Source of the DNA: Pseudomonadota bacterium
Lineage (GTDB): Bacteria; Pseudomonadota; Alphaproteobacteria; Reyranellales; Reyranellaceae
Assembly (NCBI GenBank): GCA_018242505.1
Contig: JAFEBU010000077.1
Coordinates: forward strand, 1,953 to 65,952
Direction: 5' to 3'
DNA: 64,000 nt
In this document: piece after piece, positions 15,213 to 33,183 of the stretch
Position numbering within the stretch: the first letter of the stretch is position 1
Layout of the letters: every line of letters begins with the position of its first letter
Made by a program: the position numbers and the translations under genes
Notes under the pieces: model-generated
The model's database searches: none
Seen by the model: only the letters and a program-made list of their open reading frames with translations
What the model was told of the DNA's origin: nothing

Positions 15213-15224
15213 AACGCCCCGATC

Positions 15225-15368
15225 GGCTGTTGAAAAGGATTTTGAGCCAGGTGGCCAGGCAATATCGCTTCAAGGACAGCGCCGAGATCGCTCGTTAGAC
15301 GCAAGATTGCACCGATCTCGATTCGGTTGCTGCACGCCCTGTCGTGGTTCCCGACTTTTTCAGCAGCC
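15225..15368. mobile_element. Possible MITE or IS-end relic (144 bp)
   Basis: Terminal inverted repeats GGCTGTTGAAAA and TTTTCAGCAGCC match at 11/12; internal dyad CGAGATCG/CGATCTCG; no transposase and no clear target-site duplication. Confidence 0.4.
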
Positions 15369-15416
15369 TGTTGAAGCTTCCATCTTCCACCGGCGGCTAG
15401 CATGAGTTGGCCCCCG

Positions 15417-15428
15417 CTGATATATCAG
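15417..15428. promoter_or_regulatory. Putative GntR operator CTGATATATCAG (copy 1)
   Basis: Perfect 12-bp palindrome just upstream of the gntR start, followed by TGACATATAAC. Confidence 0.75.
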
Positions 15429-15443
15429 TGACATATAACGCGG

Positions 15444-16163
15444 GTGTCACTGTTGGACCAACTCCGGACTGCAAGATCGAAGGTCGCCAAGCGTAGCGTA
15501 CGTCAGGCAGTTCCTCCTATCGACCCGCAGGAAAGCTCCCTCACCGAGCGCGCCTGGCGTGCCTTGGAAGAAGAGATTGTCACCCTGCGCATCGCACCGG
15601 GCAGCGTCGTGAGCGAAGCTGGCCTCAGTGCGCGACTCGGTCTTGGCCGCACACCGGTGCGCGAGGCGTTGCAGCGACTGGCCAACGAAGGCCTTGTCCA
15701 GATCCTGCCCCGCCGCGGCATCATCGTGACCGACATCGATATTGCAGCCCAGTTGCGGCTCCTCGAGGTCCGCCGCGAGATCGAGCGGCTGCTCGCCCGT
15801 TCTGCGGCGCAGCGCAGTTCGCGCGAGATGCGCGATCGCTTCGAAGCGATCGCCGACGAGATGGAGGTGGCGGCGAAGCGCGAGGACGACGTGGCGTTCA
15901 TGCGCCTCGACCGCGCCTTCAACCTGCTGCTGCTCGAGGCGGCGGCCAACGAGTTTGCGACAGCGGCGATGCGCGTGATGAACGGGCTCGCTCGCCGCTT
16001 CTGGTATGCGCACTACAAGCTGGTCGCCGACATGCCGCTCACGGCGCGGCTGCACGCCGCCGTCGCGCGCGCTGTCGCTTCAGGCGAACCCGGTGTGGCC
16101 GCGATCGCGTCGGACCGGCTGATCGACTACATCCAGGACTTCTCACGCAGATCGATCGGGTGA
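15444..16163 (+). CDS. GntR (FadR/FCD) family regulator
   Basis: LSARLGLGRTPVREALQRLANEGLV wHTH plus FCD-type C-terminal domain. Confidence 0.94.
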   Translation: MSLLDQLRTARSKVAKRSVRQAVPPIDPQESSLTERAWRALEEEIVTLRIAPGSVVSEAGLSARLGLGRTPVREALQRLANEGLVQILPRRGIIVTDIDIAAQLRLLEVRREIERLLARSAAQRSSREMRDRFEAIADEMEVAAKREDDVAFMRLDRAFNLLLLEAAANEFATAAMRVMNGLARRFWYAHYKLVADMPLTARLHAAVARAVASGEPGVAAIASDRLIDYIQDFSRRSIG

Positions 16164-16171
16164 GCAGCCCC

Positions 16172-17275
16172 ATGCAATTCCGCGCCGCCATCCTCCACGA
16201 ACCCCGCACGGCACTCACGATCGAGACGATCGAAGCCGTCGACCTGCAGCCCAGCGACGTGCTGGTCCGGGTCGCCTCCGCCGGCCTCTGCCATACCGAT
16301 CTCGAGGTGATCGAGGGACAGCTCGTCTATCCGATGCCGATCGTGCTCGGGCACGAGATCGCCGGCGTCATCGAGGCGGTCGGCAGCGCGGTCAGCCCCA
16401 GGCGGCGCGGTGAACGCGTCGTGCTTTCGTGGAACCCGTATTGCGGCCACTGCTTCCACTGCGAGCGCAATCAGCCGATCCTGTGCGAGACCTACATCGC
16501 GAACGGCCCGCAGGCGGTCCAGTTCGACGGCACGAGCCGTCTCAAGTTGAACGGCGCGCTGTTGCGCACCATGTTCTACATCGCGGGTTTCGCCGAATAT
16601 GCGATCGTCACCGACCCCTGCGCCATCGCCATTCCAACCGACATGCCGTTGGATCGTGCCTGCCTGATCGGCTGTGGCGTGATGACGGGCGTGGGCGCCG
16701 CGATCAACGTCGCGAGGCTCGGCTATGGCGAGACGGTCATGGTGATCGGCTGTGGCGCGGTCGGACTCTCGGCCGTGCAGGGTGCGCGCCTCGCCGGCGC
16801 CACCACCATCCTCGCTGTCGACCGCAACCACGAGCGGCTCGCGCTCGCGCAAAGGGTCGGCGCGACCCACGTGGCCGCGGTGCCCGATGAGGATGCGTTG
16901 GCCGTCGCCCGTCGCCTGACCGGCGGACGCGGGGTCGACTGCGTACTGGAGTCTGCCGGCAACGCCCCCGCCTTCCGCCTCTCCGCCGAGGCCTGTCGCG
17001 CCGGCGGCCGGATCGTGTGGCTGGGCAAGACCGGCGTGAACGAGGACGTCGCCTTCCGCTGGGGATCGCTGATGGGCGAGAAGCAGATCGTGCGCAGCAG
17101 CTACGGCGGTGCCCGGCCGGCGCGGGATTTCCCGCGCCTGGCAAGGGCTTACCTCGACGGTGCGCTGCAGCTCGATCCCTATGTGACCCGCCATCTCAAG
17201 CTCGAGGAGATCAATGCCGGGTTCGATGACCTCAGGGCCGGCCTCGGCATCCGCTCGGTGATCCAGTTCGGCTAA
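16172..17275 (+). CDS. Zn-dependent alcohol dehydrogenase (MDR family)
   Basis: CHTD, GHE, structural Zn CGHCFHC...C, LIGCGVMTG and GCGAVG motifs. Confidence 0.93.
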   Translation: MQFRAAILHEPRTALTIETIEAVDLQPSDVLVRVASAGLCHTDLEVIEGQLVYPMPIVLGHEIAGVIEAVGSAVSPRRRGERVVLSWNPYCGHCFHCERNQPILCETYIANGPQAVQFDGTSRLKLNGALLRTMFYIAGFAEYAIVTDPCAIAIPTDMPLDRACLIGCGVMTGVGAAINVARLGYGETVMVIGCGAVGLSAVQGARLAGATTILAVDRNHERLALAQRVGATHVAAVPDEDALAVARRLTGGRGVDCVLESAGNAPAFRLSAEACRAGGRIVWLGKTGVNEDVAFRWGSLMGEKQIVRSSYGGARPARDFPRLARAYLDGALQLDPYVTRHLKLEEINAGFDDLRAGLGIRSVIQFG

Positions 17276-17290
17276 CGATGGAAACGGCTT

Positions 17291-17321
17291 TTGACCTCAT
17301 GACATACAACTGATATATCAG
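17291..17321 (+). promoter_or_regulatory. Sigma70-like promoter overlapped by GntR operator copy 2 (CTGATATATCAG, 17310-17321)
   Basis: TTGACC at 17291, 17-bp spacer, TATATC inside the palindrome; the second motif TGACATACAAC is adjacent. Confidence 0.7.
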
Positions 17322-17344
17322 ACGCAAAGCCGGAGGAGACGACC

Positions 17345-18133
17345 ATGGAACTGGTTTCGAGCCCGATGTCCGAACGGCAGAGGCAATATCGCGCCAACTA
17401 CCGGCACCGCGTGTCCGGCTGGTACAACGGCTACCTCCACATCGCGATCATCTACATCATCGGCTTCACGGCGCTCTACATCTACCTCGCGAACCTCGAC
17501 CACGTGACGCCGCTGGAGTGGCTCACGGTGCCGCTCACCTTCCTGTTCTGCAATTTCTTCGAATGGTGGCTGCATCGCTACGTGATGCACCGGCCGTCGC
17601 AGAATCCGGTGTTCCGCGCCGTCTACAACCGCCACACGCTGATGCATCACCAGTTCTTCACCGACAGCGAGATGCGCTTCGCCAACCATCTCGATTACCG
17701 CGTGACCTTCTTCCCGCCCTACGCCCTCTCCACGTTCACGTTGATGTCCATTCCGGGCGCCATCGTATTGGGCCTGCTGTTCGGCACCAATGTCGGCTGG
17801 CTGTTCATTGCCACCACGACCTCGGTCTACCTGATCTACGAGTTCATGCATTTCTGCTGCCATGTCGACGAGAATGCGTTCGTGCGCTGGATGCCGTTCG
17901 TGAACACGCTGCGCCGGCATCACATCGCCCATCATGCGCAATCGATCATGATGGAGCGGAACATGAATCTCACCTTCCCCATCATGGACTGGGCGTTCGG
18001 CACGTCCGACCTCAATCGCGGCCTGCTGGGCACGCTGTTCAACGGCTACAACACCGCCTACGTGAAGACCGACATGCGCAAGACCGCGCGCACGCCGCGG
18101 CTCCGCCAGGCCGGGTTGCGGCCGGCGGAATAG
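17345..18133 (+). CDS. Sterol desaturase/fatty acid hydroxylase superfamily protein
   Basis: His boxes HRYVMH, HTLMHH, HFCCH and HHIAHH; TM segments; RBS GGAGGA. Confidence 0.9.
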   Translation: MELVSSPMSERQRQYRANYRHRVSGWYNGYLHIAIIYIIGFTALYIYLANLDHVTPLEWLTVPLTFLFCNFFEWWLHRYVMHRPSQNPVFRAVYNRHTLMHHQFFTDSEMRFANHLDYRVTFFPPYALSTFTLMSIPGAIVLGLLFGTNVGWLFIATTTSVYLIYEFMHFCCHVDENAFVRWMPFVNTLRRHHIAHHAQSIMMERNMNLTFPIMDWAFGTSDLNRGLLGTLFNGYNTAYVKTDMRKTARTPRLRQAGLRPAE

Positions 18134-18148
18134 CGCGGGAGAAAGGCC

Positions 18149-18352
18149 ATGCCCTTTCGGGTCAAATTCCCGCTCACCCTGATGGTCGCCCTCGCCGCGA
18201 TCGCCGGCTGGTTCTACATGGGCTATCTCGGCCAGACCGGCCCGCAATGGGCGGTCGCCTTTCTCGGGCCGTTCACGGTGATCTCGCTGTGGATATTCCC
18301 CGAGGTCACGCGTCATCCGTCCGACGTGAAGGCGCAGAAGAAAGCGCCATGA
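18149..18352 (+). CDS. Small two-TM hypothetical membrane protein (67 aa)
   Basis: Operon position, two hydrophobic helices, ATGA overlap with the next gene. Confidence 0.75.
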   Translation: MPFRVKFPLTLMVALAAIAGWFYMGYLGQTGPQWAVAFLGPFTVISLWIFPEVTRHPSDVKAQKKAP

Positions 18353-18645
18353 AGACCTATACCGGCGACCGCACGATCGACGGCATCCAGGTGCTGGTCG
18401 ATGGCCGGCCGCTCGATCCGCGCACCGACCTCAAGCCCCTGTCGAAGAACGGCTTCGAATGGAGCTACGAGGGTCCGGAGCCGGCACAGCTCGCCTTCGC
18501 CATCCTTGTCGATCACCTCGACGACCCACAACGCGCCGAGGCCCTGCACGAGGCCTTCATGCGCGAGATCGTGGCCAACTTCGACAATACCTGGGAACTC
18601 ACTTCCGCCGACATCGACGCCAACCTCCCGGCGCTCGCGCGATAA
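18349..18645 (+). CDS. DUF6166-like small protein (98 aa)
   Basis: C-terminal part of track ORF 17518..18645 from ATG 18349: MKTYTGDRTIDG...GFEWSYEGPEPAQLAFAIL. The FEW.Y.G..PAQLA.A.L signature is recognised from memory. Confidence 0.75.
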   Translation: MKTYTGDRTIDGIQVLVDGRPLDPRTDLKPLSKNGFEWSYEGPEPAQLAFAILVDHLDDPQRAEALHEAFMREIVANFDNTWELTSADIDANLPALAR

Positions 18646-29932: not shown

Positions 29933-30925
29933 TCAGCCGGGAGGAGTGTAGCGGACCACCTTATGGTCGATGGCGCCGAAGATCGACCGGCCGGCGCGGT
30001 CGAGCATTTCGATGCGGACATGGTCGCCGAACTTCATGAAGGGCGTGCTTGGCTTGCCGGTGTCGATCGTCTCGCGAACCCGCCGCTCGGCAATACAGGA
30101 GCAGCCGACCGACGGATCGCGGTTGGCAACCGTGCCGGAGCCGATCACCGTCCCAGCCTCGAGATGCCGCGAGCGGGCGGCATGGGCGATCAACTGGCCG
30201 AAGTCGAACGTAAGGTCGGTCGCCGCGTTGGGATGGCCGAATTCCTTGCCGTTGAGGGTCGAGATCAATGGCAGGTCGAGCTTGGCGCCGTCCCAGGCGT
30301 CGCCCAGCTCATCCGGCGTCACCGCCACCGGAGCGAAGGCCGTCGCCGGCTTGCCATGGAAGAAGCCGAACCCTTTGGTCAGCTCCGTCACGATCACGTT
30401 GCGCAGGGAGACATCGTTCAGGATGGTCACGAGCTTGATGTGCTGGCGCGCGTCCGCCGCCGACATCCCCATCGGCACGTCGTCCACGATCACGCCGATC
30501 TCGCCTTCGAAATCGATCCCCCAGGCCTCGTCCTCCAGCTCGATCTGGTCCCTGGGGCCGATGAAGGAATCGGAGCCGCCCTGATACATCAGCGGATCGG
30601 TCCAGAAGGAGGGCGGCATCTCGACACCGCGCGCCTTGCGCACCAACTCGACATGGACGACGTAGGCCGATCCGTCCGCCCACTGATAGGCCCGAGGCAG
30701 CGGAGCGGCGAGCGCCGCCATATCGAGCTCGAACGCGCCCGGCGCCTTGTCATTGCGCAATTGCTCCGACAGTGCGGCGAGCCGGGGCGATACGGCGTCC
30801 CAGTCTTCGATCGCCTTCTGCAGCGTGGGCGCAACGCCTGTCGCACGGACGGCCCTCGTCAGCTCGCGATTGACCACGATCAGCGTACCGTCGCGGCCAC
30901 CTTCCTTCAGTGTTCCAAGCTTCAT
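29933..30925 (-). CDS. Fumarylacetoacetate hydrolase family protein
   Basis: MKLGTLK..GRDG.L, DFEGE, NDVSLR and GSGTVAN motifs; within the homogentisate operon. Confidence 0.92.
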   Translation of the reverse strand: MKLGTLKEGGRDGTLIVVNRELTRAVRATGVAPTLQKAIEDWDAVSPRLAALSEQLRNDKAPGAFELDMAALAAPLPRAYQWADGSAYVVHVELVRKARGVEMPPSFWTDPLMYQGGSDSFIGPRDQIELEDEAWGIDFEGEIGVIVDDVPMGMSAADARQHIKLVTILNDVSLRNVIVTELTKGFGFFHGKPATAFAPVAVTPDELGDAWDGAKLDLPLISTLNGKEFGHPNAATDLTFDFGQLIAHAARSRHLEAGTVIGSGTVANRDPSVGCSCIAERRVRETIDTGKPSTPFMKFGDHVRIEMLDRAGRSIFGAIDHKVVRYTPPG

Positions 30926-32100: not shown

Positions 32101-33183
32101 TTATGCCTTGAGCACGCCGCGTCGGATCTGGTCGAGCTCGATCGACTCGAACAGGGCGCGGAAGTTGCCTTCGCCGAAGCCCTCGTTGCCGCGACGCTGG
32201 ATGATCTCGAAAAAGATCGGCCCGATCACCGTCTGGGTGAAGATCTGCAGCAGCAGCCCCCCGCCCTCGGTCGGCGCACCGTCGATCAGAATGCGGCCGG
32301 CCGCCAGCCGGCCCAGGTCTTCGCCATGGCCTGGCACACGCTGATCGACCTGTTCATAATAGGTATCGGGAACGGTCTGGAAGGGCACGCCCCTGGCTCT
32401 GAGCGCCTCGACCGTACGGTAGATGTCCCCGGTCCCGAGGGCGATATGCTGAATACCCTCGCCATGATAGGCCGCAAGATATTCCTGGATCTGCGACTTG
32501 TCGTCGGTGCTCTCGTTGATCGGGATGCGGATCTTGCCGCACGGGCTGGTCATCGCCCTCGACTTGAGGCCGGTGAGTTTGCCTTCGATGTCGAAATAGC
32601 GGATCTCGCGGAAATTGAAGAGACGCTCGTAGAACTCTGCCCATTCGTTCAGGCGGCCGCGGTGCACGTTGTGGGTCAGATGGTCGATGTAGGTGATGCC
32701 GACGCCCGCCGGATGCGGCTCGACGCCGGGCAGGAACTCGAAGTCGACGTCGTAAATGCTGCTCTTTTCACCGTAGCGGTCGACCAGATAGATCAGCGAA
32801 TCGCCGATCCCCTTGATGGCGGGGATGTTGAGCTCCATCGGCCCCACCTTGTTCTCGACCCCCCAGGCGCCGAGCGAGAGGGCGCGTTTGTAGGCACGGG
32901 CAGCATCCTTCACCCGGAAAGCGATCGCGCAGACGCTGGGGCCGTGAACGCGGGCAAAGCCCTGGGCGAAGCTTTCCTTCTCGCCATTGACGATGAAATT
33001 CACATCGCCCTGCCGGAACAGCGACACATCCTTCGAGCGATGGCGGGCAACGCGCACGAAGCCCATGCTCTCGAACAGGCTTCCCAGCGCCTCGGGGTCG
33101 GGCGCGGTGTATTCCACGAATTCGAACCCGTCGGTTCCCATCGGGTTGACGGGATCGATCTCGAGCTCGCCGATGCTGGCCAT
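32101..33183 (-). CDS. hppD: 4-hydroxyphenylpyruvate dioxygenase
   Basis: NPMGTDGFEFVE, IDHLTHNV, GIQHIAL and GFGEGNFRALFESIE motifs. Confidence 0.97.
   Translation of the reverse strand: MASIGELEIDPVNPMGTDGFEFVEYTAPDPEALGSLFESMGFVRVARHRSKDVSLFRQGDVNFIVNGEKESFAQGFARVHGPSVCAIAFRVKDAARAYKRALSLGAWGVENKVGPMELNIPAIKGIGDSLIYLVDRYGEKSSIYDVDFEFLPGVEPHPAGVGITYIDHLTHNVHRGRLNEWAEFYERLFNFREIRYFDIEGKLTGLKSRAMTSPCGKIRIPINESTDDKSQIQEYLAAYHGEGIQHIALGTGDIYRTVEALRARGVPFQTVPDTYYEQVDQRVPGHGEDLGRLAAGRILIDGAPTEGGGLLLQIFTQTVIGPIFFEIIQRRGNEGFGEGNFRALFESIELDQIRRGVLKA

Follow-up and report, generated by a model that had tools for sequence, protein, structure and literature searches.

The window analyzed here, a 64,000-nucleotide stretch of contig JAFEBU010000077.1 from a Reyranella assembly (GCA_018242505.1), carries a forward-strand gene cluster in which a GntR-type regulator and an alcohol dehydrogenase (ADH) are followed by a membrane hydroxylase, a 67-amino acid membrane protein and a DUF6166 protein, with a copy of the same palindrome before gntR and before the hydroxylase gene. 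The regulator gene (15444..16163, from a GTG at 15444 that is uncertain as a start) encodes a presumed autorepressor of the FadR subfamily, in which Pfam identifies a GntR winged helix-turn-helix (wHTH; PF00392, 57.6 bits against a cut-off of 27, residues 34-95) and an FCD effector domain (PF07729, 66.8 bits against 24.3, residues 106-227). The protein scores below the cut-offs of all the named NCBIfam equivalogs of this subfamily—PhnR_burk, NanR, CsiR, LldR, PdhR, FadR and GlcC—and the best equivalog, TIGR03338, gives 78.7 bits against a cut-off of 271.5. The next gene, adh (16160..17275), encodes a Zn-dependent medium-chain ADH with ADH_N (84.4 bits) and ADH_zinc_N (89.7 bits) domains in Pfam, and its translation shows CHTD and GHE motifs and a four-cysteine cluster (CGHCFHCERNQPILC) corresponding to catalytic and structural zinc ligands. 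Its start is ambiguous, for a GTG at 16160 overlaps the gntR stop codon (GTGA) and an ATG at 16172 gives a more typical N terminus (MQFRAAILHEP); judged from this arrangement, gntR and adh are operonic with either start. The ADH is also below every NCBIfam equivalog cut-off, including those of the class III/formaldehyde dehydrogenase models (239.8 against 543.95 for TIGR02818, 254.1 against 512.9 for TIGR03451 and 281.8 against 440 for TIGR03989). In the PDB, its best relatives score about 217-221 bits and belong to ADH class I/III, with FoADH (8H2A) among the top ones, and the benzyl alcohol dehydrogenase 1F8F is another relative.

The second operon begins with a gene (17345..18133, preceded by a ribosome-binding site GGAGGAG at 17332-17338) whose product has four predicted membrane helices and matches FA_hydroxylase, PF04116, over residues 64-220 with 35.7 bits against a gathering cut-off of 31. 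PF04116 is the sole family reported at E<=0.01, with no match to FA_desaturase (PF00487). Ten histidines, arranged as HX4H, HX3HH, HX3H and HHX2HH (H77/H82, H97/H101/H102, H169/H173 and H192/H193/H196/H197), are invariant across 81 sequences, and these boxes predict a di-iron center. An AlphaFold2 (AF2) model with a mean pLDDT of 65 contains four confident long helices; its top Foldseek match in the PDB is Scs7p (4zr0), with a probability of 1.00 but a TM-score of 0.44 and an E value of 0.014, which makes it a weak match, and searching the PDB by sequence gave no relative of the hydroxylase. Members of the family are named in databases for sterol desaturation or lipid biosynthesis. The gene is present in 4/25 genomes of the genus, and its orthologues, 68-94% identical, are spread across Alphaproteobacteria. 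By scanning one genome per species, we assembled 80 related loci with hydroxylases in this identity range (789 kb in total, with 5-kb flanks) from Reyranella, Craurococcus, Methylobacterium, Methylopila, Hansschlegelia, Xanthobacter, Ancylobacter, Bradyrhizobium, Afipia, Hyphomicrobiaceae, Roseovarius, Paracoccus and others, and these loci are the basis of the counts given below.

The two genes that complete the operon encode small proteins that accompany the hydroxylase in most of these loci. The 67-aa protein (18149..18352), a two-helix membrane protein with a conserved FLGxFxV...WxFPEV signature and no match in Pfam or NCBIfam, is a presumed small subunit of the hydroxylase, and a homologue adjoins the hydroxylase gene in 73/80 loci. 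The DUF6166 protein (18349..18645) is soluble, 98 aa long and devoid of cysteine, and covers 89 of the 93 positions of profile PF19663 with 112 bits against a cut-off of 27. The two reading frames are joined by an ATGA overlap (18349-18352) by which, to judge from the sequence, they are translationally coupled; this organization is as originally described, and the association of the hydroxylase, small-membrane-protein and DUF6166 genes is conserved in relatives. A DUF6166 gene is found in 61/80 loci, with seven more at the edge of the flank. Among 301 evenly sampled alphaproteobacterial genomes, DUF6166 is found in 21 and a close orthologue of the hydroxylase (E<1e-80) in 13, and in 13/13 of the latter the two genes are no more than 5 kb apart. 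The neighborhood analysis that the original prediction had called for thus shows that the genes co-occur elsewhere. A further protein of about 130 aa, with four membrane helices and no Pfam or NCBIfam family, is encoded between the hydroxylase and small-membrane-protein genes in 59/80 loci (e.g., L066:5824-6219) and is absent from Reyranella-type clusters, including that of the window. Co-occurrence of this kind suggests that the 67-aa and DUF6166 proteins may be accessory subunits.

The perfect palindrome CTGATATATCAG is found at 15417-15428 and at 17310-17321, as had been noted, before gntR-adh and before what had been taken for a desaturase operon. Both copies are intergenic: the gntR reading frame starts 15 nt past the end of the first, and the second is housed in the 69-bp spacer between adh and the hydroxylase gene. 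A whole-genome pattern search showed that these are the sole exact copies in the 5,786,682-bp Reyranella genome and that the 10-mer core TGATATATCA has no occurrence beyond these two places either; the numbers of copies expected by chance genome-wide under a base-composition model are 0.06 and 0.6, respectively. The second motif that had been described as abutting each palindrome is also present at both sites, TGACATATAAC at 15429-15439 downstream of the first copy and TGACATACAAC at 17300-17310 upstream of the second, where its final C is common to both elements. Its interpretation as a motif of its own did not hold, however. Aligned with the palindrome, GTGACATATAAC (15428-15439) is identical at 8/12 positions and ATGACATACAAC (17299-17310) at 7/12; on this comparison the motif repeats the palindrome in degenerate form and is no separate element. 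Each degenerate box overlaps the perfect one by a single base, which puts 11 bp, or about a turn of the helix, between the box centers. Each promoter would therefore have a 23-bp tandem operator, made of a strong and a weak box and not assigned to a strand: operator 1 (15417..15439) consists of the perfect box followed by GTGACATATAAC and ends 4 nt before the gntR GTG, and operator 2 (17299..17321) consists of ATGACATACAAC followed by the perfect box. In a genome scan with a position weight matrix (PWM) built from 51 distinct tandem sites of the related loci, operator 2 ranks first (score 34.5) and operator 1 second (30.2).

Weaker sites were found as well. A one-mismatch copy of the palindrome at 30581 is probably a chance occurrence, since it lies inside a 330-aa open reading frame, and further copies with one or two mismatches are found in the window at 32785 and 34145. 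The third-ranking PWM hit (score 25.8; contig C60 of this assembly, G000:C60:16334-16357) is an AT-rich tandem-like site, CTAATATATATGTAATATATTTAA, upstream of an extra gene for an fdxA-type 7Fe ferredoxin and beside genes for an Rrf2-family regulator and NnrS. We dropped it as a third member of the regulon because relatives do not share this upstream region; the site probably belongs to an Rrf2/NsrR-type regulator rather than to the GntR regulon. Should it be genuine after all, this ferredoxin might be the electron donor that the hydroxylase lacks.

The operator is conserved in the related loci. Allowing one mismatch, TGATATATCA occurs 100 times in the 789 kb, against a mean of 5.45 and a maximum of 13 in shuffled sequences, and 48 of these sites are within 100 bp upstream of the hydroxylase start. 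A tandem site with up to two mismatches is found no more than 220 bp upstream of the hydroxylase gene in 58/80 loci. Other sites precede the genes for GntR, DUF6166, a PanB paralogue (PanB2), ADH and ABM proteins or occupy the divergent spacers between gntR and an MFS transporter gene and between genes for a binding protein and the hydroxylase; in several Methylobacterium loci, one site is about 290 bp upstream of the hydroxylase gene and a second is before the MFS gene. Boxes in tandem at 11-bp spacing recur across alphaproteobacterial orders, as illustrated by cTAATAGATTgGTGATATATCAg in the Bradyrhizobium/Afipia type, gTGATACGTCacTGATATATTAc in Hansschlegelia/Methylopila, cTGATATGTTagTCATATATTAg in Xanthobacter and cTAACATATCagTGATATATCAa in Pontibaca, and Reyranella-type loci also keep the strong-then-weak order of the boxes before gntR. 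The exact 10-mer is confined to the cluster in two complete genomes, one of them from Reyranella (G103 and G069), and in the draft genome G320.

A GntR orthologue with 49-91% identity is encoded within 5 kb in 45/80 loci, and of six seemingly gntR-less loci that we tested, five have an orthologue (54-59% identity) 1-2 kb beyond the flank. The idea of a GntR regulon defined by the two palindromes is supported, with sites that are unique in the genome and conserved before orthologous hydroxylase, gntR and transporter genes, and with gntR in or beside the cluster. This pattern would be expected of a local autorepressor, since gntR accompanies the sites, the sites are found in the promoter of gntR itself and the neighbors of the cluster in the window, an upstream LysR gene and a downstream cupin gene, are not conserved at other loci, for which reason we rejected both as parts of the module. 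The palindromes are thus very probably operators of the local FadR/FCD-type GntR, and the regulatory interpretation as a whole appears highly likely. A different protein—the LysR regulator, whose gene is 0.5 kb upstream, or a global factor—might instead bind the palindromes, or these might be promoter or structural elements, with GntR acting elsewhere. Such a scenario would account for the lack in the operator of the GT...AC core known from many FadR-subfamily sites. It is nevertheless very improbable, since the LysR gene is found at one other locus only whereas gntR accompanies the operator-bearing cluster almost everywhere, the sites are in gntR's own promoter region at many loci, which is typical of autoregulation, and they are absent from the rest of the genome. 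The 4-nt gap between operator 1 and gntR, together with the situation in one relative (L032) where the gntR ATG is inside the weak operator box, suggests that the gntR mRNA could be leaderless or nearly so.

In the mechanism that we propose, GntR, perhaps in the form of two dimers, would bind the 23-bp tandem operators, whose two boxes face the same side of the helix. Of these operators, one is at the gntR-adh promoter and the other would cover the spacer and −10 element of the hydroxylase operon promoter, so that GntR binding might keep transcription off until the FCD domain is occupied by its effector, a small carboxylate that would be either the substrate or an intermediate. The hydroxylase, together with the 67-aa and DUF6166 proteins, would then act on a small organic acid taken up by the cell and hydroxylate one of its C-H bonds, most likely in a methyl group. 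In the window, the co-regulated Zn-ADH could oxidize the alcohol product; elsewhere, this could be achieved by oxidation via ADH, a short-chain dehydrogenase/reductase (SDR) plus a hydrolase, or an aldehyde dehydrogenase (ALDH), or the product could lose a one-carbon (C1) unit via a PanB-like enzyme. In this scheme, we infer from sequence that GntR binds and represses, that the operator overlaps the promoter, what class the substrate belongs to and that the two small proteins act as subunits, and we assign a probability of roughly 0.7 to the combined statement that this is a locally autoregulated catabolic cluster.

The case for a soluble substrate comes from the genomic company of the hydroxylase. 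An importer is encoded within 5 kb in 45/80 loci, of the MFS aromatic-acid/H+ symporter type in 23, the Liv-type ABC in 18 and TRAP in four. Clusters are also found on plasmids, in Halomonas (hydroxylase, small protein, DUF6166, GntR, TRAP and aldehyde dehydrogenase) and, between transposase genes, in Hydrogenophaga and Cupriavidus (ABC, SDR, alpha/beta hydrolase, DUF6166, hydroxylase, small protein and GntR), which fits an accessory, sometimes mobile catabolic trait. This regular linkage to importers, together with catabolic-type enzymes, argues for catabolism of a soluble carboxylate rather than lipid tailoring, and the membrane oxidation pathway of the original prediction, if taken to act on lipids, is disfavored, a soluble organic acid being the better-supported substrate. 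In one alphaproteobacterial cluster (L141), the binding protein of the TRAP system is nearest to TakP (2hzk), which binds keto acids, to the lactate binder TTHA0766 and to a "ketoacid-binding protein"; that of Halomonas has no match at 1e-20, and the Liv-type binding protein has distant matches only, with uninformative names. The substrate is possibly a 2-oxo or 2-hydroxy acid, most plausibly attacked on a methyl group, and we see even odds that an imported soluble acid is what is hydroxylated. We considered pantoate, branched 2-oxo acids and methylated acids by name, and the evidence does not discriminate among them.

A role in tailoring membrane lipids—hydroxylation or desaturation of acyl chains, hopanoids, ornithine lipids or sphingolipids, with GntR adjusting the composition of the envelope—is the interpretation suggested by the PF04116 family itself, by its sterol desaturase names and by the nearest solved fold, the sphingolipid alpha-hydroxylase Scs7p. 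The membrane-protein partners and the fact that the window holds neither a redox partner nor a transporter would also suit it. We consider it improbable in view of the regular linkage to three importer families and to catabolic-type enzymes, the FCD-type repressor with autoregulatory operators, the occurrence of the cluster on plasmids between transposases and its presence in 4/25 genomes of the genus. There are, moreover, no lipid-synthesis genes near the cluster.

Several observations nonetheless weigh against a catabolic, GntR-controlled hydroxylation of a soluble acid. First, characterized FA_hydroxylase members are known for acting on lipids and not on soluble acids, no electron-transfer partner is encoded near the cluster, and since the cluster in the window is without a transporter gene, the argument for a soluble substrate is borrowed from orthologous loci. 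Second, the enzymes that would follow the hydroxylase vary from genome to genome to such a degree that the clusters need not all share one substrate: Zn-ADH is found in 26 of the 80 loci, a second-copy PanB in 18, PhyH in eight, an ABM protein in six and an alpha/beta hydrolase in five. The proposal that the ADH processes the product may apply to the window, where a co-regulated ADH is present, but this enzyme is a variable accessory that is replaced elsewhere by a PanB paralogue, PhyH, SDR plus alpha/beta hydrolase, or ALDH. Third, 8/21 of the DUF6166-positive genomes in the 301-genome sample are without the hydroxylase, their DUF6166 proteins being more divergent and found in other contexts. 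Fourth, TGATATATCA with up to one mismatch was not found in the three beta- and gammaproteobacterial plasmid versions of the cluster (Halomonas, Hydrogenophaga and Cupriavidus) or in the version from Reyranella sp. CPCC 100927. Last, a sigma-70 scan with strict settings, under which the last −10 position must be a T, calls no promoter at either operator. We therefore treat the promoter of the hydroxylase operon as a candidate. The sequence does contain TTGACC (17291..17296, forward strand; the candidate −35 element, as read by eye from the letters), N17 and TATATC (17314-17319), as originally stated, and a TTGAC/TTGCC element is present at the same distance in many loci, including those of Reyranella and Roseovarius; the palindrome does lie over the candidate −10 hexamer, but the promoter fails the strict consensus. 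Operator 2 spans the spacer and the candidate −10, and the overlap between operator and promoter is a reasonable inference. A strict terminator scan found nothing.

Within the catabolic interpretation, the cluster might encode an oxidative demethylase, a sub-variant in which an N-, O- or S-methyl group of an imported compound would be hydroxylated to an unstable intermediate, releasing formaldehyde and an ordinary metabolite, and the variable partner enzymes (class-III-like ADH, ADH or SDR plus alpha/beta hydrolase, ALDH and PanB-like protein) would handle the C1 unit instead of the main product. Minimal clusters of the Bradyrhizobium/Afipia type consist of a transporter, the hydroxylase, the small proteins and GntR only, and hold so few genes that one oxidative step would have to give a common metabolite. 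Judged by genus names alone, many carriers belong to methylotrophy genera (Methylobacterium, Hansschlegelia, Methylopila, Xanthobacter, Ancylobacter, Paracoccus, Hyphomicrobiaceae and Afipia), and the tested genomes of the first three have a second-copy PanB, a family with methylene-tetrahydrofolate (methylene-THF) as co-substrate. There is also a mechanistic precedent, and no more than that, in MocD, a His-box membrane oxygenase proposed to be a rhizopine O-demethylase; as MocD is of the FA_desaturase type, we rejected it as a homologue of the family. The conjunction of an ADH and an esterase with a demethylating oxygenase has a parallel in the P450 6-O-methyl-galactose demethylase cluster (PMC10033563). 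However, experiments on the ADH of that parallel cluster showed no detoxification of formaldehyde with the tested thiols (PMC10033563), the ADH of the window is below the equivalog cut-offs of the glutathione- and mycothiol-dependent formaldehyde dehydrogenases, and no candidate methylated substrate has been identified, which makes demethylation, on balance, an unlikely specific form of the proposed catabolism.

The PanB paralogue, too, is ambiguous with regard to C1 chemistry. The copy in the cluster scores above the panB equivalog cut-off, and in 5/5 genomes tested, Methylobacterium, Hansschlegelia and Methylopila among them, it is an additional copy; TIGR00222 (panB) has no match anywhere in this 91%-complete Reyranella assembly, against two or three copies in each of the five alphaproteobacterial genomes tested besides it. 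The cluster protein of one locus (L038:6851-7750) reads LGCMPY and VKPQGG, with Cys and Gln at the presumed metal-ligand places, which we take to be Asp84 and Glu114 in E. coli PanB. This counts against the demethylase variant and makes the activity of the cluster PanB uncertain; it may differ from that of the canonical enzyme.

The AF2 model of the DUF6166 protein is confident (pLDDT 94, pTM 0.88), and we rejected an MmoB-like effector or any known fold because Foldseek returned no PDB match below E=2.4. Having no cysteine, the protein is not an iron-sulfur carrier. A profile search yielded 5,923 representative clusters, the best 150 of which are small stand-alone proteins of 69-244 aa, with no informative (Rosetta-stone) fusions among these 150, and the profile is above its cut-off in the archaeon Haloferax volcanii, indicating that the family reaches beyond bacteria. 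Divergent DUF6166 genes are found beside genes for homocysteine S-methyltransferase-like proteins (PF02574) at two loci (L131 and L132, from genomes G308 and G191) and beside acyl-CoA ligase genes at two others (L135 and L136), the last of which also has thiolase and arylmalonate-decarboxylase-like genes. Our searches of a literature library found no paper mentioning DUF6166 and no description of the cluster. The enzyme module belongs to a known enzyme family, of which it is a variant conserved in many genomes; its partners are new and its substrate class is probably atypical. A bolder view, which we offer tentatively, is that the hydroxylase, the 67-aa protein, in most cases the 130-aa protein, and DUF6166 form a new type of membrane di-iron oxygenase complex that acts on soluble small acids by C-methyl hydroxylation or oxidative demethylation, with DUF6166 as a cofactor-less coupling or substrate-delivery subunit, and that this complex supplies a missing but widespread step in the carbon and one-carbon metabolism of bacteria.

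Comparison with known systems separates what is familiar in this cluster from what is new. A local GntR repressor with palindromic operators is an ordinary, textbook switch. The most thoroughly studied parallel is Atu1419 from Agrobacterium fabrum (PDB 6Z74), an FCD/VanR-group GntR repressor of a small local catabolic regulon that binds 10-bp AT-rich palindromes (ATGTATACAT) overlapping the −10 boxes of its targets and sitting in its own promoter, represses itself and is released by its effector 5,10-methylene-THF (PMC7797058). The regulator in the window shares with it the combination of wHTH and FCD domains and the identical palindromes at a candidate −10 element and in its own promoter region. 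It differs by remote sequence similarity (44.5 bits, in the N-terminal part only), by operator sequence (ATGTATACAT versus TGATATATCA) and by the distance between boxes, which is 190 bp for Atu1419 and 11 bp here. LldR, PdhR, GlcC and DgoR from E. coli respond to small 2-hydroxy, 2-oxo or sugar acids and bind palindromic operators over promoters, often with autoregulation. They have the same two-domain architecture and, in NCBIfam, weak matches to the regulator described here, but the equivalog cut-offs are widely missed, there is no TGGT...ACCA-type core in our operators and the regulated genes are unrelated.

On the enzymatic side, XylMA-XylB-XylC and AlkB-AlkJ-AlkH from Pseudomonas putida likewise combine a membrane His-box di-iron monooxygenase with an ADH—and the Halomonas version of the cluster also has an ALDH—following the same chemical logic from methyl to alcohol, aldehyde and acid. 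XylM and AlkB are, however, FA_desaturase proteins (PF00487) that use a dedicated reductase or rubredoxin and hydrophobic substrates, whereas the cluster described here has no redox partner, two small partner proteins and linked importers for hydrophilic acids. Scs7p/FA2H, the C-4 methyl oxidase ERG25 and AGMO share with our hydroxylase the Pfam family, the His-box pattern and possibly the four-helix membrane core, Scs7p being the best, if weak, structural match, but the bacterial protein is without a cytochrome b5 domain, is 17-18% identical to these eukaryotic enzymes and is found in a catabolic context; lipid substrates are unlikely for it. In the 6-O-methyl-D-galactose demethylase cluster of marine Flavobacteriia, the P450 CYP236A is encoded with an ADH and an esterase (PMC10033563). 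Common to both systems would be an O2-dependent, methyl-attacking oxygenase conserved beside a Zn-ADH and an esterase, and FoADH (8H2A) is a relative of the ADH in the window; the P450 system differs by its ferredoxin and reductase, its sugar substrate, its setting in a polysaccharide-utilization locus and the lack of a GntR operator system.

The operator is useful as a marker that ties poorly understood genes into one conserved regulon in Alphaproteobacteria, including plant-associated, methylotrophic and marine groups. The soluble-metabolite chemistry suggested by the genomic company of the hydroxylase is not an established role for the FA_hydroxylase family, and identifying the substrate would correct the common mis-annotation as sterol desaturase and could fill a gap in a catabolic or one-carbon pathway. 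In addition, operator and repressor together could serve as a ready biosensor for the inducer. Near the gntR promoter region is an interspersed repeat of about 147 bp (15225..15370, no strand) that resembles a miniature inverted-repeat transposable element or a repetitive extragenic palindromic sequence; it lies 47 bp upstream of the gntR operator, outside the regulon. In a blastn search of the genome with 15213-15416, we found 36 matching segments on many contigs, with 70-86% identity among the matches listed, and the inverted ends of the repeat resemble GGCTGTTGAAAAGG and CTTTTTCAGCAGCC.

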